The notes below the pieces were generated by a model. The model searched no databases. It was not told where the DNA came from and was given only the letters and a program-made list of their open reading frames with translations. A stretch of 64,000 nucleotides of DNA from an uncultured Nitrososphaerota archaeon (lineage in GTDB: Archaea; Thermoproteota; Nitrososphaeria; Nitrososphaerales; Gagatemarchaeaceae), in the NCBI GenBank assembly GCA_963703285.1, contig OY969807.1:1856001-1920000 (forward strand). Reading direction: 5' to 3'. This document shows positions 1,777 through 31,051 of this stretch, piece after piece. A program made the position numbers and the translations under genes. Every line of letters begins with the position of its first letter. Positions within the stretch are counted from its first letter, which is position 1.

Positions 1777-3831
1777 TTGGATCTACCCGTCCTATGGCTG
1801 ATAGCCGCTGCGATGGCCGTCTTCACTGCCTGGCTGCTGAAGAGGGGCTCGACCATGAAGACGCTGACGGACGCCGGCATAGTCCTCTTCCTCCTCGTGA
1901 TGATGGCGTCGATGTTCATCAGCACCGTCGTCTACCTCTACATCCCCACCTTCATCACCATCTTCGAGCTCGTGGCCCTGAACATGATCTCGATGTCCAT
2001 CGGGCTCATCCCGATCCTCACCGCCCTCGTCAAGGGAGACAGGCAGCTCGATGAGACGCGCAAGGGCAGCAAGGTGTCCAGCAGGTACATGATCATCGCC
2101 GCCATAATCTGCCTGGCGATACTCTCCGAGGTCTTCATGGGATGGACCTTCGCCATCCTCTCGGGCGCCGCCTCGACCTCGACCCAGAGCGTCTTCTCGG
2201 CGCTCGTCGACTCGATGAGCACGTACTGGTTCATCTTCACGATGGCCTCCGAGATGGCGGTCACGCTCTACCTCGTCGGCAAGAACTTCCCAAGCACCTT
2301 CCGATGGCTGGTCGCCCTCCAGATTTCGATAATGGTTCTCTCGCCGACGGCCATAGCCAACGGCGGGTGGGCTACCTTCGCCCTCGTCGGCAACAGCGCG
2401 GTCATGATTGTCGCCATCATCCTCCTCTTCGAGTACATGTTCAAGAACCGAACCATGCCGCTGGGGGCGTCCAAGTACATCGTCCGCCTGCTGGGGGCGT
2501 ACGCGCTGATGATGGGGGGCCTCTTCGCGTGGCAACTCTACGGCGACGTGCTGCCCTTCGTGCTCTCCATTGTCGCCGAGATGGTAATCTACTTCTCAAT
2601 AGTCCTGGACGAGAAGACCCTGACCTCGCCGCCCCTGGTCAACTGGCAGACCAGGCCTCTCTGGACCTTCGCGATGCTCGGGGGCCTCTTCGTCGCTGAG
2701 TTCTTCATGGGAGGCGTCCTGGACGCGGTGGCGCTCGGGACGGGTTACTTCCTCACGGCACAGCCGTTCACTGCGATTTCGGGCTCCGCGCTGACGGTCG
2801 TGGGGGCCGCGTTCTACGACTTCATCGTCGCCGTGGGGAGCATCACCGCATCCTTCTGGTTCCTGCTCATGATGGGCATCGAGATGGGCGCGCTCGTCGT
2901 CTTCAAGATCAAGTACGCCAGGGAGATGGAGACCAAGCTCAGGCTGGTCCTGGTGATAGTGGCTTACGCCCTCTACACCCTCTTCTTGCCCACGTTCGTC
3001 ATCGGGGGGTCGATGTCCAGCGTCCCGTGGATTGGGTGGAGCATGGGCCTCGGCACGGCGGGCGCTCTGGCTCCGGACGTCATACTCGTCCTCCTGGCGA
3101 CCTACCTCATATCCGGAGGCCTCTCGTTCTTCTTCGGCTCGAGGAACGTCTGCTCGCTCTTCTGCACCGCGGCGCTGATGTACCAGGGTACCACCTACGA
3201 CGCGATGAGCTCGTTCAACAGGACCTCCAAGATAGGTCGTCATCTCCTCACGAGCCGCATCTCCGGCGCCTACAAGGTCGTCGTCTCCCTGGTCTGGGTC
3301 TCGCTCCTCGGCGGCGCCGTGATCTCGTATCTCACCTCAACTGGTTACATAAGCGCCTCGATATTCGGGACCGACCCTAGCTACTTCTTCTTCGTCTTCT
3401 ACTTCTCCTTCCTCTGGTACCTCATCTGGATAATGATTCCGTTCGTCGGGACCTATGGCTGCGCCACGACCGGCATGTGCGGCTGGGGGTCCTTCAACCA
3501 GCTCATATCCAGATTCGGCCTCTTCAGGCTGAAGGTCAGGGACAGTAACATTTGCGTCAATTGCAAGACCAAGGACTGCGCCAGGGTCTGCCCGGTGGGG
3601 CTGACCGACCTGCCCGGCGCCTTCATCGACAAGGGCGAGTTCAGGAGCTTCAAGTGCGTCGGCGTCGGCGACTGCGTCTCGGCCTGCCCCTACGAGAACG
3701 AGTACTTCTTCGACGTCAGGAACTGGGTAAGGAAGAAACTCAACAAGCCGCTTCCCCCTCTGGCAAAGCCGGTGAGGACGGAGCCGATCGAAAGCCCGAT
3801 TGTTTTCGGCGGTCAGGCAAAGACAGATTAA
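1777..3831 (+). CDS. Polytopic membrane protein with C-terminal 4Fe-4S ferredoxin domain (NapH/CcoG-like Cys pattern)
   Basis: Many hydrophobic segments; CSLFC, CATTGMC, CVNCKTKDCARVCP and CVGVGDCVSACP motifs. Confidence 0.75.
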   Translation: MDLPVLWLIAAAMAVFTAWLLKRGSTMKTLTDAGIVLFLLVMMASMFISTVVYLYIPTFITIFELVALNMISMSIGLIPILTALVKGDRQLDETRKGSKVSSRYMIIAAIICLAILSEVFMGWTFAILSGAASTSTQSVFSALVDSMSTYWFIFTMASEMAVTLYLVGKNFPSTFRWLVALQISIMVLSPTAIANGGWATFALVGNSAVMIVAIILLFEYMFKNRTMPLGASKYIVRLLGAYALMMGGLFAWQLYGDVLPFVLSIVAEMVIYFSIVLDEKTLTSPPLVNWQTRPLWTFAMLGGLFVAEFFMGGVLDAVALGTGYFLTAQPFTAISGSALTVVGAAFYDFIVAVGSITASFWFLLMMGIEMGALVVFKIKYAREMETKLRLVLVIVAYALYTLFLPTFVIGGSMSSVPWIGWSMGLGTAGALAPDVILVLLATYLISGGLSFFFGSRNVCSLFCTAALMYQGTTYDAMSSFNRTSKIGRHLLTSRISGAYKVVVSLVWVSLLGGAVISYLTSTGYISASIFGTDPSYFFFVFYFSFLWYLIWIMIPFVGTYGCATTGMCGWGSFNQLISRFGLFRLKVRDSNICVNCKTKDCARVCPVGLTDLPGAFIDKGEFRSFKCVGVGDCVSACPYENEYFFDVRNWVRKKLNKPLPPLAKPVRTEPIESPIVFGGQAKTD

Positions 3832-3898
3832 GGATTCGTCGTCGCGAGTCGTGCCATGAGGCCCTGTCGGGGCGGCTGAGTGGGGCGGGAAGGCATCT

Positions 3899-4987
3899 TT
3901 GTCCTACCTGATCTACTACCTAGTGCCCACAGCTTTCCTGATGGTAGCTTTCATCAGTTGGGTGATTACGAAGACCACCAAGGCGCGCACCGGCATCGAC
4001 AACACCGTTCTCCTGCTCCTACTCGTCATGATGGTGGCCATGCTCGTCGGCCCGGCCTACCTCTACCTGACGACGCTCGGTTTCACCCTGGGCGACGTCG
4101 CCATCTGGGAGATTGCAGTCTTCATGAGCGTCGGCATGATGCCCATAGGCGTCCTCCTCTTTGCGCAGTTCTGGATGGAGGGGGACACCGATAGGAAGGG
4201 ACCCCTCCCTCTCTCGAACCTGCTCCCGCACGTCACGGGGCTCAGGGCCGCGTACATAGTCCTCCTGCTGCTCAGCGAGCTCCTCATGGGTTGGACGTTC
4301 AACCTAGCCTCGGGCTTCATCTCCCTCTCAGCCGGCTACTCGCTCGCCGCCGTCGAGCGTGAGTTCAGCTACAGCGTCACCACGTCGTGGTTCGTCTTCA
4401 CGATGGCCGGGGAGATGGTCCTGACCCTCTTCGCTTTCCGCAAGAGCGTGCGCCGGGACCTCATGGCCGTGCTCTGCCTGCAGACCGCCGTGATGTTCCT
4501 GACGCCCACTGCGTTCCAGTCGCGGTCCTGGGAGACGTACACGCTCTACCTCGATGCCGCCGTGATGCTGGGCGTCGTCGGTTTCGCCATCTACTACCTC
4601 CGTGGGGGGAAGGAGCACGACCGCGCTCTCCTGAACTATCTCGCGCTCTTCATTGTCGCCAACGCCGTCATGATGGGGGGTTTCCTGCTGTGGCTGGTCT
4701 CCGGCGACACGCTGCTGCTGGCCCTGTCTCTGGTGGCGGAGACGGCCATATACTTCGACGCGGTCCTGACCGGAGCGGGCTTCGGCGGAACCTTCGGTCT
4801 CCCCCGCCCCAACCCGAGAGAGTCGGAACCTCAGACATCGCCACCTGTCTCCTTCACGGGGGGTCCGACACAGACCGGCGGGCTAGAGCCTCAACCGGGT
4901 GCGACGGCAGGAAGGATCGGCCCCTTCGCCTCACCCGACAGTCTCAGGTTCGCCGTCATCTTGCCGACCGAGTGCAGGTTCAGGTAG
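3899..4987 (+). CDS. Membrane protein paralogous to the N-terminal part of the upstream ferredoxin-membrane protein
   Basis: LSELLMGWTF and WFVFTMAGEM match LSEVFMGWTF and WFIFTMASEM of 1777-3831. Confidence 0.7.
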   Translation: MSYLIYYLVPTAFLMVAFISWVITKTTKARTGIDNTVLLLLLVMMVAMLVGPAYLYLTTLGFTLGDVAIWEIAVFMSVGMMPIGVLLFAQFWMEGDTDRKGPLPLSNLLPHVTGLRAAYIVLLLLSELLMGWTFNLASGFISLSAGYSLAAVEREFSYSVTTSWFVFTMAGEMVLTLFAFRKSVRRDLMAVLCLQTAVMFLTPTAFQSRSWETYTLYLDAAVMLGVVGFAIYYLRGGKEHDRALLNYLALFIVANAVMMGGFLLWLVSGDTLLLALSLVAETAIYFDAVLTGAGFGGTFGLPRPNPRESEPQTSPPVSFTGGPTQTGGLEPQPGATAGRIGPFASPDSLRFAVILPTECRFR

Positions 4988-5730
4988 AGTAGGACCACCG
5001 CGAAGGGAGGGAAGAGGAAGTAGGTCGCGTCGTAGACCCAGAGCAGTGACGAAAGTGCGGCGGCCGACGGGACCGCCACCGTGAAGAGCAGCGGGACGCT
5101 GAGGCAACAAGACGCGCCGAAGGCAATCCCGAGGGCCGGGAAGACGATGAGCGACCTCGACTTGGCTCCGAGCGAGCAGGCCTTCCCTAGCTCCCGTGTC
5201 TTCCCTATGTTCGCCACTATCAGGACGTCTATTATGAGTGCTATCACCAGGCTGTAGAGGCTCAGCGTCGTCGTGAAGGCCGGCGGTGTCGTCAGCGTGA
5301 TCCACGGATTGTACCAGAGGGCGAGGATGACATTCACGGCGGTGGGTGGGGTGAAGACCGTGGTGGTGAGCGATACCCCGGCGCCGGTCGTGAAGAAGTG
5401 GCTGCCGTAGAAGGAAGTGAGGATTCCCTCGAGCAGATATCCGTAGAGGAGGATGTGTATGACGAGGTAAACCGCAAAGACGACCACACCGGAGAGCGTC
5501 CGGATGTATCTCCGAAAGTCAGCTACCGCCGAGCGCAGCGGGTAGCTCAGAAGCAGAAAGGCGATGCCATACCAGAAGAGGAACGGGGCGAGGATCTCAG
5601 CCGGGTTCACGGTGACCGAGCCCCAGACGTAGGCGAAGTAGGAAGAGATGACCGCTAGAGCCATGACTGAGAACCCGTGGATTGGGACCGCGAGGCTCCT
5701 GTGCGCCTGACCCTCGACCGTCGTCTTCAT
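4891..5730 (-). CDS. Hypothetical membrane protein with vicinal Cys pair (ASCC)
   Basis: 279-aa ORF with several TM segments, directly downstream of the cupredoxin. Confidence 0.6.
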   Translation of the reverse strand: MKTTVEGQAHRSLAVPIHGFSVMALAVISSYFAYVWGSVTVNPAEILAPFLFWYGIAFLLLSYPLRSAVADFRRYIRTLSGVVVFAVYLVIHILLYGYLLEGILTSFYGSHFFTTGAGVSLTTTVFTPPTAVNVILALWYNPWITLTTPPAFTTTLSLYSLVIALIIDVLIVANIGKTRELGKACSLGAKSRSLIVFPALGIAFGASCCLSVPLLFTVAVPSAAALSSLLWVYDATYFLFPPFAVVLLYLNLHSVGKMTANLRLSGEAKGPILPAVAPG

Positions 5731-5779
5731 GGTATTCCCTCGGGCGACGAGCTACAATATGACCCTGTCGACAACACCC

Positions 5780-6268
5780 CTAGGTCACGACCCTGAGCTG
5801 CCCGAACTGCATGAAGAAGTGGATGGCGCAGGGGATGGCGCAGTAGATCTGGAAGTTCCCCGCCTTGGTCGCCACGAAGGTGAAGTTGACGACCTCGCCC
5901 GGCGCTATCACGTTGATCTTGCTGTCCACGTAGTTCTGTATCTGGAAGCCGTGCGCCTCGTCGCCCACGTTGCAGACCTCGATGCTCACCGTCTGGCCCT
6001 CCTGCACGGTGATTACGGGCCAGGGTTTCGAGAGCCCGGCACCCTCGATGATGCTGTCGTTGTAGCCGTACTCGCTCTGCAGGACGAGGAACCCATTCGC
6101 GGGCCTCACGCAGCCCGTCGGGAGGATGACCTGGGTGGTCGTCGCGAGGCTGTTGGCCCTGTCACCGAATGCCACGCCGAGTCCCAGCACCGTCGCGACC
6201 GAGGCCACGGCGAGAATCGTCGCCGCGGCTAGAACCATAGTGGGGTTTCTCGATTTCATGAGTGTCAA
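5780..6268 (-). CDS. Membrane-anchored cupredoxin-domain protein
   Basis: N-terminal TM helix; HGF motif plus CAIPCAIHFFM (CuA-like Cx3Cx2Hx2M). Confidence 0.8.
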   Translation of the reverse strand: MTLMKSRNPTMVLAAATILAVASVATVLGLGVAFGDRANSLATTTQVILPTGCVRPANGFLVLQSEYGYNDSIIEGAGLSKPWPVITVQEGQTVSIEVCNVGDEAHGFQIQNYVDSKINVIAPGEVVNFTFVATKAGNFQIYCAIPCAIHFFMQFGQLRVVT

Positions 6269-6476
6269 CCTGAGGTCAGGGCGATATGGTCGGACCTCTA
6301 CTCTTGCCCACGCACCGGTGGGCGCACCGCAAGATTCGCTGATTCATCGCCGCGATTACCGGGAAAGGCCCCCCATCGAGGCTCTAATCCTTTATGGCTC
6401 AAATCACACGAGGATTCGCAGGCCTCGCTCCGGCGCGTGCGGCGTCAGCACCACCATGCCGCGAGTGGGAAGCTCC

Positions 6477-6800
6477 CTAGCGGTTCATCTCTGCCTGGAT
6501 GAGCTCGGAGAGCTTCTGGAAGTAGAGCCTCGTCGCCAGGGGCATCGCCTCCAGGTTCCCGTCAATCGCCTCCAGCACGTATCCGACGGCCCTCCTCGAC
6601 GTCCTGAACTCGAACTTCATCGGCAGTATTTCGTTCTGGATCACCTGAATGCTTTCCCTGAGTTGGTCGGGGGCCCTAGCCCTGGCCTGGGCCTCGATGC
6701 GCTGGTACCATCCGGCGAGGACGGTCGGGTCCAGACCGAGCTTCAGGTTGTCTATCTCCCTGACGAGCCTCTCGATTAGCCTTGTCTCTTCGTCCGCCAT
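6477..6800 (-). CDS. Hypothetical protein
   Basis: 107-aa ORF abutting the upstream gene; protein-like composition. Confidence 0.6.
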   Translation of the reverse strand: MADEETRLIERLVREIDNLKLGLDPTVLAGWYQRIEAQARARAPDQLRESIQVIQNEILPMKFEFRTSRRAVGYVLEAIDGNLEAMPLATRLYFQKLSELIQAEMNR

Positions 6801-7214
6801 TCAGCTGCACTTCGACTGGAAGATCTCCGTCTTCTCATACTCGGCTTCCCAGGCGTGCGTGCTGTTCCTTGCCCTTCTTAACGCTAGGAGAGTGTACCCA
6901 TCGGGCTGCTCCGCCACAGCCCTCTGGAAGATAGCCTGCATCGGCTCCCTCTCCTCGTCGTAGTTCCTGATTATGTGCTGCCTGTATTTCTCTATCTCCT
7001 TCATATGGTCCTTCAAACAGAGTGTCCTGCCCTGGAACCGCGACGACGTCAGCCTCTTGACCTCATCGCCGCAGACCTCACACCTAACCTTCTCCATCCC
7101 GCACGTCATGCAGATCCTCCCGACCCCGATCACCAACGGGAAGCTGCCCGCCGTCTGCTCCGCCTTCCCGCAGACCGCGCACTTGGCTGGGGTCTTGGAA
7201 CCGAGGTGCTGCAT
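6801..7214 (-). CDS. Small Zn-finger protein (several CxxC motifs)
   Basis: CAVC, CMTC, CEVC, CLKDH; ATG 7214 chosen to avoid overlap with the HAD gene. Confidence 0.6.
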   Translation of the reverse strand: MQHLGSKTPAKCAVCGKAEQTAGSFPLVIGVGRICMTCGMEKVRCEVCGDEVKRLTSSRFQGRTLCLKDHMKEIEKYRQHIIRNYDEEREPMQAIFQRAVAEQPDGYTLLALRRARNSTHAWEAEYEKTEIFQSKCS

Positions 7215-7255
7215 GTCCCGGCGATGCCCCTGCTGCTTAATACGGTTTCGACGCG

Positions 7256-8032
7256 CTATATCAGGTCCGCCAGCTCGTCCACGCTGTCGATGACCCAGGT
7301 GGCCTTGGTCTTCGTCTTTCCATCGTGGACCCCCGTCAGCACGAGGACAGAATCGATTCCGGACCTGTGCGCCCCCTCGATATCCGTGTCCTCCTGATCT
7401 CCTATCATCACGGTTTCGCGCTTCGTGCACCCCGTCCGCTTCATCGCGACCTCGAACATTTGCTTGGAAGGTTTCCCGACCGAGTACCCCCTCTTCCCCG
7501 AGCCATACTCAACCGCCTTCAGGATTGGCCCGACGGTTATAGCAGGACCAGTCCTCGACATGTAGAGGGCCGCCGAGTGGCACGCGACGATGGCCGCACC
7601 ACGCCTGGCCAGCAGGACCGCCCTGTTGAGCTTCGCGTAGGTGACTTTCCGGTCCAGGCCTATGGCGACGACATCGGCTCTGTCGCCGCGGGTCCGTTTC
7701 AGCCCGAGGCTGTCCAGCTCCTCTGCGAAACCCGACTCTCCAACGAGGAAGTAGGTCGCTCCGCGGTAAGTATCAGCTATGTACTCCGCCGTCGCCCTTG
7801 CGCTCGTGAGCAACTCGTCCCTCTCCACCAGTATCTGCTGGGAACCCAGGCGCCTCAGCACGGTCTGGACCGAGTCGGTGGAGTTGTTGGTGACTATGCG
7901 CAGCTTCTTCCCCTGGGTCCTGATTTTCTCGAAGATCCTTGTGCCGCCGATCTTGACCGGGCTTTCCTTCCCCTTCAGCAGCACTCCGTCGAGGTCGAAG
8001 AGAAAGAGCTTCTTCCCAGTTAGGTCAATCAT
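7256..8032 (-). CDS. HAD-IIA family hydrolase (NagD-like)
   Basis: FDLDGVL, TNNS, GKP and MIGDQEDTDI motifs. Confidence 0.9.
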   Translation of the reverse strand: MIDLTGKKLFLFDLDGVLLKGKESPVKIGGTRIFEKIRTQGKKLRIVTNNSTDSVQTVLRRLGSQQILVERDELLTSARATAEYIADTYRGATYFLVGESGFAEELDSLGLKRTRGDRADVVAIGLDRKVTYAKLNRAVLLARRGAAIVACHSAALYMSRTGPAITVGPILKAVEYGSGKRGYSVGKPSKQMFEVAMKRTGCTKRETVMIGDQEDTDIEGAHRSGIDSVLVLTGVHDGKTKTKATWVIDSVDELADLI

Positions 8033-8119
8033 CCGAGGCGCGTCGCAGTCTCGTGGATAATTAGATTGCGGGGCTAAACGTCTAAATATCCACACGGAGG
8101 GCCGGGAATCGAACAAAGG

Positions 8120-8431
8120 ATGACGCAGTACGCGCGAATCAAGCTCACCAGCTCCAACCTAGAGCAGCTCGACAGGCTGGCCAAGGAGATCAAAGACATC
8201 ACCGAGAAGACCGGCGTCAAGATCAAGGGACCCCAGCCCCTCCCGACTAAGAGGCTCAAAATCACGACCAGGAAGGCCCCTACCGGCGAAGGGACCCACA
8301 CGTTCGACCACTGGCAGCTCCGGATTCACCGCAGGATCATGGACATCGAGCCCGACGACAGGACGATGAAGCAGATCACCAAGCTCCGGATACCCGAAGA
8401 CGTGAAGATAGAACTCACGCTTACGAGCTAG
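8120..8431 (+). CDS. rpsJ: 30S ribosomal protein S10 (uS10), archaeal type
   Basis: ARIKLTS...GPQPLPTKRLKITTRKAPTGEGTHTFDHWQLRIHRR. Confidence 0.97.
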   Translation: MTQYARIKLTSSNLEQLDRLAKEIKDITEKTGVKIKGPQPLPTKRLKITTRKAPTGEGTHTFDHWQLRIHRRIMDIEPDDRTMKQITKLRIPEDVKIELTLTS

Positions 8432-9314
8432 ACCGCATCCAGTCGGCCGTCCTCCTCAGTCCGGTTTCCAGGTCGAGTTCATACTCGTAACCCAGAAGCC
8501 TCTTAATCTTCTCGGTAGAGGGATAGCTCACCTGCGGCTCCGATTCCGACTCGCTCCTCGGAGGGAGCATCTGCAGCTCTGACCTGGAGCCAGTCAGCTC
8601 CTTTATCGTCTCGGCCAGCTGCCTGATCGTGACCGTCCTCTCGCCCGCGAAGTTGAAGGCCTGCCCGATGGCGGAGTCCTTCTCGATCAGGTTGGCGACG
8701 AGCCGCCCATAGTTCACGGCGTGCGAGGGTGCGGTGGTGTCACGTCCGGAGTTGAAGAGCTTGATCGGCTCGTTGCGCAGGCAGGAGGAGATGAACCGCG
8801 GCACCGCCCTGTTGGGCGCGTCGTACTCCCCGAAGAGAAGCCAGGCCCTCGTTATCGAGACGGGCAGCCCCTTCGCGCGGTTGTACCCCATCACGAACGA
8901 TTCCCCCGCCACCTTGGAGTAGTCGTAGGGGACCCTGGGGCTGAACCTCGCCTCCTCGGTGACGGGGTTATCCTTCGGGGCGCCATAGACGTTCGCCGAG
9001 CTGGCATAGACGACTCTCCTGACGTTCTTCCGCAGGGCGAGCTCCAGGACGTTGAGGGTGCCGTAGCTGTTGACCTCGAAGGCCCCGTAGGGGTCCTCGA
9101 CCGTCTTGCGGAGGTCCGCTATCCCGGCAAGGTGCACCACCGCCTCGAAGTCGAGCCTCCCGAGCTCGTTCAGGACGAAGGACCGGTCGGTCACGCTCCC
9201 CGCGTTCGGGCCGCCCGCTACGTCCGTCGGAATCGGCTCATGGCCGTGGGAGGAGAAGTACCGCATGACGTGCTTCGCCACGAACCCGGATGCGCCGGTG
9301 ACTAGGACCTTCAC
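8421..9314 (-). CDS. NAD-dependent epimerase/dehydratase
   Basis: VLVTGASGFVA, HLAG, SSANVYG and YDYSK extended-SDR motifs. Confidence 0.9.
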   Translation of the reverse strand: MKVLVTGASGFVAKHVMRYFSSHGHEPIPTDVAGGPNAGSVTDRSFVLNELGRLDFEAVVHLAGIADLRKTVEDPYGAFEVNSYGTLNVLELALRKNVRRVVYASSANVYGAPKDNPVTEEARFSPRVPYDYSKVAGESFVMGYNRAKGLPVSITRAWLLFGEYDAPNRAVPRFISSCLRNEPIKLFNSGRDTTAPSHAVNYGRLVANLIEKDSAIGQAFNFAGERTVTIRQLAETIKELTGSRSELQMLPPRSESESEPQVSYPSTEKIKRLLGYEYELDLETGLRRTADWMRSSS

Positions 9315-25921: not shown

Positions 25922-26360
25922 GGTCATCCATCCGCCGCGCACCTCGAACAGCACTCGCTAAGGCTCGATCCCCGCTAATCGGCAGTATACGGCGCCAAGT
26001 CCGGGAATCGGCTAGAGCGCAACATATATTAAATGAATAATTCATTCACGTAATCTGTAGGGCCAAAGATATGCCACGCAAGAAGATGGACCAAGAGCTG
26101 AGGGACGAGAAGTCCGAGCTGATCCTCGACGCTGCTAGGAAGGTCTTCGCGAGGAAGGGCAGCGCGGCGACCATGGCCGAGGTGGCTGAGGAGGCGGGGG
26201 TCAGCCCTGAGGTAAGAGTGCGTTGCCACGCTAGAATTGCTTCAGGCAGGAAACACGCACCCTCCCTCCCAAACCCGGCGTGATACTTTCGCATCACCGG
26301 GCTTTCACCCCTACGTCCTCCGTCCTCTTCTTGTGCATTGGATGGATGGGTTTCGGCTGC

Positions 26361-28112
26361 CTAGTTTCTAGGTAGCCTACTGTGGCATGTCGCGCACAAT
26401 GTCTGAAGATTTTCGACCCGGTGCACGACCTGCGGGTTGAAGACCATTCCTTTGGGGACAGGTTCCCTATGGTGCGCCTGAAGTCTTTCCCGACTGCCGC
26501 ACAGAGTACACCTCCATCCATCCCTCTCAAACGCCAGAAAGCGGTTGGAGAGATAGGTTTCATCGTACTCGGGCGCAATCGGGTGGATGTTGGGCACATC
26601 AACGATTGGGTCGTCGTTTTCCTCTGATACGCTGGTTGCGGTGTGGTTCTGGCGGATGTATGGATTGCTGATTGACCTGTATTTCCAAACAAGTCTGTGA
26701 TTCAGTGAGGTGTGCATGCTCTTGTTCGAGTTCATCCTAAAGAGTTCGGTCTTGACCGGCCCTCTTTGGATGACTACACTACCGTTTCTGAGCACGACGG
26801 AGAGGCATTTCTGGACGCTTATCTGGTATTTCCTACAATACCATTGATAGAACAGGCGCTGTGCCAGAAAGTCTCCCGTAGCGAATTGCTGATGTGAGTT
26901 GACGGTTCTGTAGTAGTTTGCCCATCCTCTCAAGACTCTGTTCATGGCTGCAATCTTCATCTGAGGGTCGTCGCTCTTCGCGCTCGGCCCTAGCATGGCT
27001 TGCAGTTTGTACTTGAGTCGGAGTAGGTTCTTTTGTGTTGGTCGTATCCTGACGCACATGCCGTGGTCTAGCCTTACTCGCTGGATGCGAAATCCGAGGA
27101 AATCGAATCCAGCTTCCAGATGCACGACACGCGTCTTTTCTGCGGACAGGCTCAGCCTCAGCTTCTCCGTGAAGAAGCTGCGTATGTTGTCCATGATTGC
27201 GGTGGCCTGCTCCTGAGTGCCTTTCACGCTCAGGATGAAGTCGTCCGCATACCTGAACAGCACGCAGCTTGCCTGCCCTTTCTCACGTCGCAGTCTTCTC
27301 TGCTTGTAGGTGAGTTTGCCCCAGCTCTCGTACCAATGCTGGTCAAACTCGTTGAGGTAGATGTTGGCTAGGAGTGGCGAAAGGACTCCGCCTTGCGGGG
27401 TTCCTTTCTTGGTCTGAGTTCGGATGCCCTTCTCGATGACGGGTGCCTTGAGGAATCGGCGGATCAGCCACAGGACTTTTGGGTCGGCTATCCTTCGTTC
27501 TATAGCTTCCATCAGTATCCAGTGGTCGATGTTGTCGAAGCACCCTTCGATGTCTCCCTCGATGACCCATTCGTACAGACGCTTGCTGTCCCCGTACTGA
27601 TACATGGGCAATACGCACTCCAGCGTGCTTCGCTCAGGTCGGAAGCCGTTGGAATTGGGCAGGAAGTCGGCCTCAAAGATTGGTTCGAGAACCATCTTCA
27701 AGACCATCTGAACTGTCCTATCCTTCAGCGTTGGAATGCCTATTGGTCGTTTCCCTCCGCTGGCCTTCGGAATGTACTTCCTCAGGACAGGCGAGGGGTG
27801 GTAGGTCTTGTGTTTCAGTTCTGTCCGCAGTTCCTCGACAAATCTGGCCCTAGCAGACGGTTCGTGCAGGTCTGCCCCGCACACTCCGTCTACGCCTGAG
27901 GTCTTCGCGCCAGTGTTGTCTAGGACTGCTTCCAGAGCCGATTTGAGCCACTCTCTTCTCCAGAGTAGCGGGTGTAGGTTGTGGAACCGTTTGTTCGGTT
28001 GTCTTGTTGCTGCTATGGCGAGCCCACTCTGGATATGGAGAATGACTCTGCCTTCGTCCTTGCGGACTACTGGATTGGGTGATTGCTCACCCAACTGATT
28101 GTTTGAGTCCAT
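26361..28112 (-). CDS. ltrA: Group II intron-encoded RT/maturase with C-terminal HNH endonuclease
   Basis: RPIGIPTLKDR, EGDIEGCFDNIDH, GTPQGGVLSPLLANIYL, RYADD, FDFLGF, LRGWANYY, RDGWRCTLCG..HH..NLQTLCATCH; SD GGAGGTGA before ATG 28112. Confidence 0.95.
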   Translation of the reverse strand: MDSNNQLGEQSPNPVVRKDEGRVILHIQSGLAIAATRQPNKRFHNLHPLLWRREWLKSALEAVLDNTGAKTSGVDGVCGADLHEPSARARFVEELRTELKHKTYHPSPVLRKYIPKASGGKRPIGIPTLKDRTVQMVLKMVLEPIFEADFLPNSNGFRPERSTLECVLPMYQYGDSKRLYEWVIEGDIEGCFDNIDHWILMEAIERRIADPKVLWLIRRFLKAPVIEKGIRTQTKKGTPQGGVLSPLLANIYLNEFDQHWYESWGKLTYKQRRLRREKGQASCVLFRYADDFILSVKGTQEQATAIMDNIRSFFTEKLRLSLSAEKTRVVHLEAGFDFLGFRIQRVRLDHGMCVRIRPTQKNLLRLKYKLQAMLGPSAKSDDPQMKIAAMNRVLRGWANYYRTVNSHQQFATGDFLAQRLFYQWYCRKYQISVQKCLSVVLRNGSVVIQRGPVKTELFRMNSNKSMHTSLNHRLVWKYRSISNPYIRQNHTATSVSEENDDPIVDVPNIHPIAPEYDETYLSNRFLAFERDGWRCTLCGSRERLQAHHREPVPKGMVFNPQVVHRVENLQTLCATCHSRLPRN

Positions 28113-28757
28113 TCTCTCACCTCCTGTTGTGTTTCGTGGACTGAATCCATCCTTCTGCACAGTTCAGACTTCGGATTTCAGGCTAGAGTCCTTCCCCACA
28201 GGTCGGTAATTGGCCGACGTTCAGGGTACTATGACTCCTCGGAGCCAACCCGGTCAAGTCGGACGCAGCCGTCCTATCCTCTCGCCCTTTATCGACGGGA
28301 GTCAGACCGGGTTGGGTCTCACGTTCTGTAAGGAGCACTTCTGCGGACGGATTTAGGCACCCACCAGTTACCGAGAGAGCTCCAGCTCGCTGGCCGGTTC
28401 TCGCCTGCCTGAAGGAGGGGATTTGCCACACTTCGTCCTTGAGTAAAGTGTGGTAGCTCTCTATACCATGCGCGCTTCGTCCTATCCTAGCGTCTTCGCA
28501 TGGCGCATGCGCTACCTGTTGTGGATTCCTTAACGTTGCCGTGTCCGTCCTAAGGTCGCCGTCTCGGGAACCTAGGCTGTTCCCTTATCGGCTGTCTATG
28601 TCTGGGGCTAGCCCCATGCTGGACTCTGCTCAGAGCCCAACAAGCCAGACGACTTTCACCTTCGGGAGTCCTGACCTTGCGGTCGAGGACGCCCAGCCTT
28701 ACCTACTGTAGTGTGGGATGGAGATGACTGAGCATGCTGGTGATGAGGTGTTCCAGC

Positions 28758-29324
28758 TTATGGTACTGCGCTCGCGCAGTACGAGGTAGACCCATACGGA
28801 ACGGATGTTTCATTGGAGCCAGTGACGGTTACGATGAGGGTATTGTTGGAGCTGTCGAGTTTCTGTGCTGTGGCGCAAAGAGTCAGGCCGCCGGTAACTA
28901 CTGATGTCATGGTAACGTTCTTGGCGAAGAAACCGCTACCAGTGTAGCTCCCACTGACATTCGTAGGATTGGTCTGGCCGAGGTTGTTGTATCCCAGATA
29001 CGTCAACTTCCACGGACCAGTATAGTTTACGGAAACGATGAAAGTGTAGTTGTAGGTCGCAAGACAATCACCGCCCGACTGATACCCCGAGCACGAGCTA
29101 GAGATCGTCGTCGAGGTCGTTTGCGACTGGGTGGTAAGAGTTTGACTGGTATTGACCGGCAGAGTAGTGGTCGATGATAAGTTGGAAGAAGTCGATGGAC
29201 TGGAAGAATGGGAAGTATTCGACTGTGACGTGAGTACAATGACTCCTGTCGCTCCGACCAGGATGACCACGACTGAAACAATGGCAATGATTGCTGTTCC
29301 AATTCCTCTTCTGGAAGTCTTCAT
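28758..29324 (-). CDS. Intron passenger: Ser/Thr-rich surface protein with class III (prepilin-like) signal peptide
   Basis: MKTSRRG-IGTAIIAIVSVVVILVGATGVIVL, S/T-rich linker, Cys-containing beta domain; own TATA-like element (TATTAA, about 29361-29356). Confidence 0.75.
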   Translation of the reverse strand: MKTSRRGIGTAIIAIVSVVVILVGATGVIVLTSQSNTSHSSSPSTSSNLSSTTTLPVNTSQTLTTQSQTTSTTISSSCSGYQSGGDCLATYNYTFIVSVNYTGPWKLTYLGYNNLGQTNPTNVSGSYTGSGFFAKNVTMTSVVTGGLTLCATAQKLDSSNNTLIVTVTGSNETSVPYGSTSYCASAVP

Positions 29325-30001
29325 GTCGTGTCTGTGTTTGATGTGGTCGTGCGTCATTAATACCTTTGTCCGAATGGCGCTACTTTGCATGGAATAGTTG
29401 TGGTAGGTAGGGGAATATAGTCCTACGGTTTAGGACGGCTGTTCTGATGTTTGACTACAGTTCTTCGGGCATTGCTCCTTACAGCAGAGAGGTAGCAGGC
29501 TACCTCTTTTCGTGACGCGCAGGGGCTCGCTTACAGGTACTTCTCGAGCAAGGATGAGATTGTCGCAACCCTGGTCAGGAGGATGATCCAATCGAGAGGC
29601 AAGCTAACCTCGATGGTCCGGGAGATGCCGGGAACCCCAGGAGCGCGTCTCTTCAAGGTCGTATCGACGATGGTCGACAACAGGCGGGAGCGGCCTGAGT
29701 ACCACCAGATGATGTACCAGGGGATGGCCGACGAGAACTTGTCGCAGGAGCTGCGCGATGCCATAAGCGAGCAGAGGAGAGCCGTCAACGAGATAGTGCG
29801 GGGTCTCATCGTCGAGGGTCAGGCGACGGGTGAGGTCGCGGGGGACGACCCGGATCAGCTGGTCACGGCTGTTATGGCGTGTCTCGACGGCCTCTCGAGG
29901 AGGGTGTTGACGATGCCTCACGGCGAGTCCGGGGAGAAGTTGCCGCCCCCCGGGATAATCCTGAGGATGCTCAGGCCGGACGTGGGGAGGGTGAGCCTGG
30001 G

Positions 30002-31051
30002 TTGAAGCTGAAGGGCGTCTGTTACGATGTCGGAGCTGTTATGGGCTTCAATTGGCGTCCAGTCTTCGACCCGAAGGTTGTACGCCGGGAGCTGGAGGTC
30101 ATCAAGAACGACCTGCATTGCAACGCGGTGAGCATCAGCGCCCTGGATGTTGGTCGGATTGTGACCGCCGCAACAGCCGCGCTCGAGGAGGGGCTCGAGG
30201 TCTGGCTCTCGCCTCTGCTGTGGGACAAGAGCGAGGATGAGACCGTCGCGTACTTGGCCAAGGCGGCCGGGCGGCTGGAGGCTCTCCGCAAGCGGTGGCC
30301 CGACAAGGTGGTGCTGAGCGTCGCCTCAGAGTCCACGCTGTTCATGCAGGGGATACTCGAGGGGAAGAACATCATCCAGCGGCTCGGAAACCCAAAGTTC
30401 AGAGCGAGAATCATGGCCGGCGAGCACAACGGGCCGCTCAACGCGTTCCTCGGCAAGGCCGTGGCTGCAGTCAGGAAGGAGTTCAAGGGCAAGCTGACCT
30501 ACCACTCCCTCATCTGGGAGAAGGTCGACTGGAGCCTCTTCGACTACGTCGGCGTGGACCACTACCGGGCCAAGGACATCGAAGACAAGTACGTCGAGAT
30601 GCTGAAGCCGCTCTTCGACAGCGGCAAGCCCGTGGTGGTCACGGAGTTCGGGTATGGGACCTACCAGAGCGACGGGAAGCTCGCCCAGGTCCTGCTGGGA
30701 GGAGGGGACGTCGACTTCAAGTCGCAGTTCTTCCACGCCCTACCGGTCGTGGGAAGGTTCGTCCGTCCCAAGGTGCGGGTCATCCACCCGCGCGACGAGG
30801 CCTGGCAGGCGCGCAAGGTCGTCGAGACCCTGGAGATTCTCGACGACGCGGGCGTGGACGGAGCCTTCGTGTCGCAGTTCGTGTCCCAGATCAATCCCTT
30901 CGATGAGGACCCGAGGTACGACCTGGACTTGGCAGGAAGCACCCTCGTCAAGAGCTTCGAAGGGGGAAGGAGGGGCACCACCTATCCAGATATGCCGTGG
31001 GAGCCGAAGGAGTCCTTCAGGGCCGTGGCCGACTATTACGCCACCCACTAG
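30002..31051 (+). CDS. TIM-barrel glycoside-hydrolase-like protein
   Basis: KGVCYDVG, DLHCNAV, KPVVVTEFG; TTGA overlap with the TetR stop. Confidence 0.6.
   Translation: MKLKGVCYDVGAVMGFNWRPVFDPKVVRRELEVIKNDLHCNAVSISALDVGRIVTAATAALEEGLEVWLSPLLWDKSEDETVAYLAKAAGRLEALRKRWPDKVVLSVASESTLFMQGILEGKNIIQRLGNPKFRARIMAGEHNGPLNAFLGKAVAAVRKEFKGKLTYHSLIWEKVDWSLFDYVGVDHYRAKDIEDKYVEMLKPLFDSGKPVVVTEFGYGTYQSDGKLAQVLLGGGDVDFKSQFFHALPVVGRFVRPKVRVIHPRDEAWQARKVVETLEILDDAGVDGAFVSQFVSQINPFDEDPRYDLDLAGSTLVKSFEGGRRGTTYPDMPWEPKESFRAVADYYATH

Follow-up and report, generated by a model that had tools for sequence, protein, structure and literature searches.

The stretch of DNA analyzed here (the window) comprises 64,000 nucleotides (nt) of contig OY969807.1 from an uncultured Nitrososphaerota archaeon. 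On its minus strand, at positions 26207..29520, lies a mobile group II intron that holds two genes. One codes for the intron-encoded protein (IEP), a reverse transcriptase (RT), and is located in ribozyme domain IV (DIV); the other is a small gene for a predicted surface protein and occupies, together with a promoter-like motif, the loop of a hairpin in domain I (DI). Comparison with its relatives indicates that this intron probably belongs to a recently mobile archaeal family, in which the tip of the DI hairpin serves as a cargo slot for host-type surface-protein genes that are moved and exchanged.

Intron boundaries, copies, and interrupted genes

The ends of the intron were set by comparing two copies from the same genome, found in a whole-genome search with the element. 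Copy B (G000:C1:2039889-2043202) is 100% identical to the window copy over 3314 nt and has unrelated flanks. With the flanks counted, the two loci are identical over at most 3315 consecutive nt, of which 1 nt is a G common to both 3' exons, so the intron is 3314 nt long, spans 29520..26207 on the minus strand, and reads GCGCG...CUCAG. Identity stops exactly at both intron ends at both loci, and the flanks diverge right before GCGCG in every copy compared. The element is therefore wider than the segment 28326-29484 to which the preliminary description of this locus, made from the sequence of the window, had assigned it; that segment corresponds to the DI repeats, which are present as described.

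The window copy interrupts a gene of the TetR family, the 5' part of which lies at 26071..26206 (plus strand; Pfam TetR_N, 34.4 bits, profile positions 1-30 of 47) and the 3' part at 29521..30005 (plus strand; Pfam TetR_C_24, 40.6 bits). In-silico removal of 26207..29520 yields an open frame for a TetR-family protein of 206 amino acids (aa) (..AEEAGVSQGLAYRYF..). Since this restored frame is on the plus strand and the intron on the minus strand, the window copy is antisense to its host gene. Excision of copy B likewise gives an open 284-aa ArdC-like frame (PF08401, 23.9 versus a cut-off of 22.6); this copy sits in the sense orientation near the 3' end of the ArdC-like gene. Because two 100% identical 3314-nt copies are found at unrelated loci, the loaded intron has moved as one unit, and the route of this movement would be retrohoming.

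Short-read contigs (coded run X1) match positions 28547-29520 without a difference and include both 5' junctions, and none of these DNA contigs joins across the intron; the runs may be the source sample and hence do not count as independent support. The neighborhood of copy B (L008, G000:C1:2037000-2046000, positions 2077-8875) includes a gene of the Fic/DOC family (24 bits, at the cut-off) and a 316-aa open reading frame (ORF). The surroundings of this copy may be an integrated mobile or defense island.

Ribozyme structure and intron-encoded protein

The catalytic hairpin of domain V (DV) and the adjoining domain VI (DVI), which are hallmarks of group II introns, are located at 26207..26306 (minus strand), where Rfam family RF00029 scores 57.1 bits against a gathering score of 40 and is matched over the full model (positions 1-77). 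The Rfam models for domains I to IV stay below threshold on the window intron (19.2 versus 35). RNAalifold predictions on five relatives show a six-domain fold with a long-range stem closing DI, and resolve this 12-base pair (bp) stem, the inner cargo hairpin, an extra 5' hairpin, domains II (DII) and III, and the DIV stem. The 12-bp stem closes most of DI; its 5' strand (29473..29484, minus strand) and 3' strand (28326..28337, minus strand) were recovered by an inverted-repeat search as 100% complementary arms, exactly where the preliminary description had placed them. The extra hairpin (29486..29507, minus strand; arms 29488-29496/29499-29507) is found between the 5' end and the basal DI stem and is variable among the relatives, with compensatory changes.

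Exon-binding site 1 (EBS1) is located in the loop of an ID3-type hairpin at 28426..28453 (minus strand). In four relatives (Y, L098, L100, and L101), this loop pairs over 6-7 bp with the exon bases abutting |GCGCG, the intron-binding site 1 (IBS1), and covaries with them, at pairing energies of -8.8 to -11.2 kcal/mol. Because the EBS1-IBS1 pairing abuts |GCGCG and covaries, it pins down the 5' splice site as well as the location of EBS1. Together with the divergence of the flanks before GCGCG and the restored TetR frame, it places the 5' splice site upstream of the surface-protein ORF, as the preliminary description had assumed. The candidate EBS2 (GCGCAU; 28507..28512, minus strand) would complement AUGCGU in the 5' exon of copy B, and its region also pairs with IBS2 in introns X and Y of contig G014:C8. 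In the window copy, EBS2 matches site B only, and the EBS1 loop matches neither site. Alternative EBS1 candidates elsewhere in DI were rejected, as the only perfect 6-mers fell in conserved structural segments and showed no covariation.

The IEP is encoded at 26361..28112 (minus strand) and comprises 583 aa from the ATG codon, within an ORF of 599 aa in all. It contains the Pfam domains RVT_1 (1.2e-39), GIIM (2.4e-10), and HNH (24.0 bits versus a cut-off of 21.4) and matches NCBIfam TIGR04416 with 353 bits (cut-off, 300). An IEP with RT, maturase, and endonuclease (En) domains located in DIV is characteristic of mobile group II introns, and the catalytic YADD motif is intact (FRYADDFILS), so that the earlier impression of intact RT and HNH motifs is borne out by the profile matches. 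The closest solved structure is that of the T.el4h IEP (PDB 6me0; E value of 5.4e-56). Among the introns with DI cargo, a full-length IEP is found in the window copy, in Y (584 aa), and in L089 (q1-582).

A cargo slot in domain I

Within DI, a second pair of inverted repeats, 8 nt each and 100% complementary, encloses 741 nt. These arms form the closing stem of the cargo hairpin, with the 5' strand ACUGUAGU at 29454..29461 and the 3' strand ACUACAGU at 28705..28712 (both on the minus strand), again in full agreement with the preliminary description. The enclosed cargo cassette (28713..29453, minus strand) consists of a leader, a promoter-like motif, an ORF, and a short 3' tail.

Relatives of the intron were found by searching 40 relative genomes with the whole element and realigning the matches. 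The cassette is missing from three of them, G001:C38, intron X of G014:C8, and G023:C59, in which positions 1-57/63 of the window copy (copy A numbering) are joined directly to position 813 onward. The identity of such cargo-less relatives to the window intron is ~82-83%, and that of the partial G023:C59, which belongs to another genus, is 74%. At the slot, all three have a 5-bp stem with a GGAA, GAAA, or GCAA loop, and a perfect 5-bp stem with a GNRA loop is found there in 19 cargo-less loci. RNAalifold predictions for nine distinct cargo-less sequences place the slot hairpin between invariant GCCC/GGGC pairs, with changes on both sides at 3 of its 5 pairs (e.g., ACCAC/GUGGU). Since cargo-less relatives carry (G/A)CUGC-GNRA-GCAG(C/U) at this position, the cargo of the window intron replaces the tetraloop of a small hairpin, the stem of which has been lengthened to 8 bp. 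By position, this is the first stem-loop after the basal DI stems, which in the conventional nomenclature would be IA or IB. In loaded copies, the closing helices are 5-9 bp long, except in G011:C1, where the pairing is weak.

The insert holds the cargo ORF and no transposase, there is no target-site duplication at its junctions, and its only terminal repeat is the closing stem, which extends a preexisting hairpin. It therefore lacks the marks of an insertion sequence (IS) or a miniature inverted-repeat transposable element (MITE), in line with the earlier suggestion that the cargo does not come from a separate element of this kind. Nor does the insert look like the inner intron of a twintron: no Rfam match was found within 28713-29453 at E values of up to 10.

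A segment of the cargo leader (29431-29441; CAGCCGUCCUA) is complementary at 11 of 11 positions to DII (28266-28276) and at 9 of 9 positions to DI (28545-28553). The leader could also form a hairpin of its own (GUCCUA..UAGGAC).

The cargo gene and its promoter-like motif

The cargo ORF (28758..29324, minus strand) codes for a protein of 188 aa (MKTSRRG...), as the preliminary description had recognized in its loop of about 740 nt. The protein starts with a basic n-region and a hydrophobic helix of ~25 residues, followed by a serine/threonine-rich linker and a ~110-aa β-sandwich head. Fifty homologues were found at E values of ≤0.01, and an alignment of 43 sequences of this family contains 9 invariant residues and four conserved Cys residues. 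The AlphaFold2 model consists of the N-terminal helix, a disordered linker, and the β-sandwich head; 55 of its 188 residues, nearly all of them in the head, have a predicted local distance difference test (pLDDT) score of ≥90, and the means of 10-residue blocks in the head range from 72 to 96. The stalk and the Cys-containing head that had been read from the sequence are thus recovered in the alignment and the model.

Searches of Pfam with this protein gave no family above the cut-off, the Pilin_N-type families included, and a Foldseek search of PDB with its predicted structure gave no match at an E value of ≤0.001. The best match in a wide VIA-align search had a Z-score of 6.5, below the informative level, and consisted of generic Ig/FN3-like β-sandwiches only; the best score in the ESM Atlas, 0.79, was below the level of a lead. 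The prepilin-like class III signal peptide named in the preliminary description is therefore a putative assignment. The cargo might best be described, on the basis of the model, as a membrane-anchored β-sandwich surface protein, with no narrower label.

Cargo homologues are encoded in 19 of the 22 other genomes of the genus and in none of the 18 genomes of other genera. A sample of 19 such loci in the sister genomes has no intron motif within 1.5 kilobases (kb), and these free homologues are ordinary genes. In its own genome, the family is found exclusively inside the three intron copies, with no chromosomal paralogues outside introns. In sum, the cargo is a real gene of host type.

The promoter-like motif TTCGGACAAAGGTATTAAT (29356..29374, minus strand) resembles a transcription factor B recognition element (BRE) with a TATA box and lies ~30 nt upstream of the cargo ATG. 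The motif TTCGGACAAA occurs 22 times in the genome, a ten-fold excess over the 2.2 occurrences expected, usually 30-45 nt before an ATG. Similarly, GTTCGGACAAAACTATTAATC recurs upstream of many genes (e.g., at G000:C1:1284071, 1286045, 1287559, 1449215, 1651609, and 1660130). TTCGGACAAA/GTTCGGACAAAACTATTAATC is probably the strong BRE/TATA consensus of this organism. The TATA-like sequence noted earlier upstream of the ORF thus matches the genome consensus, and the motif in the cassette would be predicted to act as a promoter.

Distribution of the family and diversity of its cargo

Further members of the family were sought with an exact 21-nt stretch located just 5' of the slot. The roughly counted total is 37 real members, 22 with the short hairpin and 15 with an insert. 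Species-representative genomes contain 10 motif loci (6 with the short hairpin, 3 with an insert, and 1 chance match), and metagenomes contain 28 motif contigs, 16 of them short (22 nt in 14 cases and 26 nt in 2) and 12 with an insert or running open. The chance match, a lone exact 21-nt motif on a contig of a Chitinophagaceae metagenome-assembled genome (L069), was judged as such because it had no other intron features around it. The intron family is found in Nitrososphaerota of peat and soil. At the same loop, its members hold no cargo, a different cargo, or a related one, which is the kind of variation that the preliminary description had proposed to look for.

The cargo proteins from the surveyed loci, the genome under study, and relics found by BLAST (17 in total) fall into 9 BLAST components, with one link that rests on the N terminus only. 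Two of the components, represented by L074 and L082, are probably one family, so the number of unrelated cargo families is at least 8. The sense strand carries the longest ORF in 15 of the 17 inserts; a 19-residue window with peak hydropathy of ≥2.3 is found among the first 60 residues of the longest sense ORF in 16 of the 17. The motif CGGACAAA is found in 12 of the 17 inserts examined. L095 is the exception among the cargo inserts. The inserts in loaded members are 0.4-0.76 kb long.

Exchange of cargo, domain IV inserts, and relics

Intron Y of G014:C8 and the metagenomic L089 are found in homologous target sites (91.5% identity over 59 nt), in the sense orientation and with intact IEPs; the IEPs of Y, L089, and L098 form a tight, fully supported clade. 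From the 3' strand of the slot onward, Y and L089 are 97.5% identical over 2198 nt, whereas their inserts (383 and 601 nt) have no detectable similarity and their 5' hairpins also differ. Likewise, in the third intron copy of the genome under study (copy C), the ribozyme parts are 82-97% identical to those of the window copy, and the cargo protein is 33% identical. Since near-identical introns hold unrelated or diverged cargo, the cargo turns over far faster than the intron. The aligned sequences thereby document an exchange of cargo between related introns at or near the slot hairpin; in Y and L089, the sole pair examined for it, the whole 5' segment seems to have been exchanged. Reverse transcription of the intron RNA starts at its 3' end; exactly the pattern seen in this pair would be expected if the RT switched templates close to the slot. 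The exchange could proceed by such switching, near the 5' end of the template, or by homologous recombination. The earlier proposal that this retroelement might be a vehicle for surface genes gains support from the variety of the cargo, from near-identical introns with unrelated cargo, and from the free homologues.

The peripheral DI loop to which the cargo had been assigned is not its only site in the family. G004:C126 contains a 207-aa signal-bearing ORF between the IEP stop codon and DV, i.e., in the DIV position, and this protein and the DI-side cargo of L086 are homologous (41% over 94 aa). In intron X, DI is unloaded, but 398 nt that include an antisense membrane ORF are inserted at this same place, ahead of DV. 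In the "mini" elements L086, copy C, and G020:C7, the cargo is followed almost directly by DV-DVI and there is no IEP, an arrangement that might result from deletion between the two slots. In the relics G014:C4, G001:C55, and G017:C7, all that is left of the intron is the DI sequence flanking a cargo gene.

Small multi-pass membrane ORFs, antisense to the intron and located just before DV, are found in L007 (positions 2918-3310; copy C) and L056 (positions 5319-5843).

Proposed mechanism and alternative explanations

In the mobile family with a DI cargo slot that is envisaged here, the 5-bp hairpin with a GNRA tetraloop of unloaded members would be the empty slot. In loaded members, a closing helix of 5-9 bp would extrude the 0.4-0.76 kb of added RNA, so that the ribozyme core could still fold. 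The payload would be a host-type cassette in the sense orientation, in which the genome-consensus promoter motif precedes a small ORF whose product is membrane-anchored or secreted. The loaded intron would spread as a unit, presumably by retrohoming; cargoes might be swapped between related introns by homologous recombination or RT template switching; and decay of the intron would leave the cargo gene at a new locus. A more ambitious version, which can be put forward only tentatively, is that of a natural ribozyme-based gene-cassette platform, with a dedicated DI slot, a usually built-in host-type promoter, and surface ORFs swapped between coresident introns, plausibly through switches of template by the RT near the template's 5' end; the ORFs would then spread by retrohoming to new loci and, via conjugative-type elements, to new hosts and produce integron-like surface variation in archaea.

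Several observations weigh against a mobile family with a DI cargo slot. The termini of the window intron, GCGCG...CAG, differ from the group II consensus GUGYG...AY. Its EBS1 loop pairs with its two 5' exons at -4.8 and -5.2 kcal/mol, values that shuffled exons equal in 51% and 43% of trials. The ratio of nonsynonymous to synonymous substitution rates (dN/dS) among intron-borne cargo homologues is 0.23-0.72 in six pairs and 0.99 in one very distant pair, indicating constraint that is present but moderate, and the cargo of Y looks frameshifted relative to that of L098. Many loaded copies are relics without an IEP (copy C, G014:C4, G001:C55, G017:C7, and L086). The proportions obtained in the survey are rough, as it used an exact 21-nt motif and contigs are often cut at the intron, and the splicing of the loaded intron, the formation of a lariat, and the expression of the cargo are all predictions from DNA sequence. 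The mismatch of EBS1 with both targets, the nonconsensus termini, and the fragmentary state of many loaded relatives would also suit a splicing-dead relic, in which the ORF is merely trapped and the identical copies arose by duplication or gene conversion at the DNA level, as would the antisense position of one copy in its host gene, from whose mRNA it cannot splice. Such a relic is nevertheless very unlikely. The identity of the two copies ends exactly at the intron ends at both loci, the IEP is intact with its YADD and HNH motifs, and DV-DVI scores 57 bits. Wherever the ends of an examined relative are on its contig, they read GCGCG...(C/U)AG, also in introns that show good EBS1-IBS1 pairing; these ends are a family-wide variant rather than damage to the window copy. 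Furthermore, the loaded introns Y and L089 are in the sense orientation in a conserved target and have intact IEPs.

The cassette might instead be a small mobile element in its own right, MITE-like or with its own recombination system, that targets the hairpin loop, with the intron as a mere landing site. The perfect 8-bp inverted repeat at the ends of the insert could be read in this way, as could the occurrence of several different cargoes with a similar leader and the same promoter motif and that of a related cassette in G004:C126 at another site, which lies between the IEP and DV. However, the insert contains no transposase or integrase and is not flanked by a target-site duplication, and the inverted repeat extends a stem that is already found in unloaded introns. 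In addition, the cargo family of this genome is confined to the three intron copies, the promoter motif is general to the genome rather than specific to the cassette, and the junction sequences vary by cargo type, all of which makes a separate element highly improbable. Another option is that the main benefit of the insert goes to the intron: its internal host-type promoter would drive transcription of the IEP downstream, independently of the state of the host gene, and the small ORFs would be secondary passengers. Consistent with such a role, conservation extends to the motif but not to the ORFs, every cassette is sense-oriented and lies upstream of the IEP, and the sequence from the cargo stop codon to the ribozyme has no visible T-run terminator; the copy that is antisense in a gene is one in which an internal promoter would be needed. 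This explanation is unlikely, though, as the motif is missing from 5 of the 17 inserts, the proteins of the cargo families are conserved and have homologues elsewhere, and a transcript that starts inside DI can neither splice nor move.

Relation to known systems

The usual picture of group II introns is one of minimal selfish retroelements with a single gene, that of their own RT in DIV. This picture would change with a natural lineage in which a DI hairpin can accommodate 0.4-0.76 kb, the loaded intron moves, and the cargo is exchanged among relatives. If the proposed reading is true, such introns are vehicles of host-type genes and provide archaea with a route for shuffling surface proteins. 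For engineered targetrons, in which the capacity of DIV for cargo is limiting, they would suggest a second insertion site, already validated in nature. Three matters are made testable by this family: the load of foreign RNA that the ribozyme periphery can bear, an internal promoter versus dependence on the host gene, and RT template switching as a source of modular retroelements.

With mobile bacterial and archaeal group II introns that encode an RT-X-D-En protein, the family shares DV-DVI (RF00029), an IEP in DIV with the RVT_1, GIIM, and HNH domains, EBS1/EBS2-IBS pairing (in the relatives studied here), and target sites in mobile-element genes and in the ORFs of related introns. It differs from them in the addition of a host-type gene with its own promoter-like motif in a DI hairpin, in the extra 5' hairpin, and in the GCGCG...CAG ends. 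The variants covered in the available part of one review include introns with LAGLIDADG ORFs, twintrons, introns with a domain VII, and forms that lack an ORF, but none with such cargo (PMC4424553); in the accessible text of another source, the RT ORF is always in DIV (PMC9294222). Introns that encode LAGLIDADG proteins and twintrons are similar in that a non-RT ORF or a foreign element resides in a group II ribozyme (PMC4424553, in part). In those cases, however, the extra genes are mobility genes or other introns, whereas the insert described here codes for a surface-type protein and has no intron or endonuclease signature. Engineered targetrons (Ll.LtrB, with genes in DIV) also have a foreign gene within the intron RNA, of which retrohoming produces a DNA copy. 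These are man-made, with the cargo in domain IVb, and their efficiency is reported to drop with cargo (PMC8524655); the cargo of the present family is natural, located in DI, up to 0.76 kb long, and exchanged among relatives. No report of a host-type cargo in a natural group II intron, in DI or elsewhere, was found in the literature covered, which was available in part and had most subscription journals outside its scope (PMC4424553, PMC6907783, 10.1101/2024.12.10.627823, PMC8919778, and PMC9294222). What appears to be new is thus a group II intron family with a natural DI cargo slot, mobile group II introns and engineered DIV cargo being already known.

Tandem and nested family members

Introns X and Y (L056, G014:C8:1201500-1211500, positions 1996-8243) are located 378 nt apart, in the same orientation, in one open frame of a Cys-rich gene. 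An assignment of this gene as a paralogue of transcription factor B was dropped, as the 126-aa exon between the introns has no Pfam match.

L101 and L102 represent an ORF-less member of the family, with ~0.9 kb from the 5' end to DV and the 26-nt variant of the slot hairpin. This intron starts at oriented positions 1314 and 824, respectively, and is nested in the IEP gene of another intron: IEP residues 58-137 are encoded just upstream of it, and its 3' exon reads LKMVLEPIFEADFLP.

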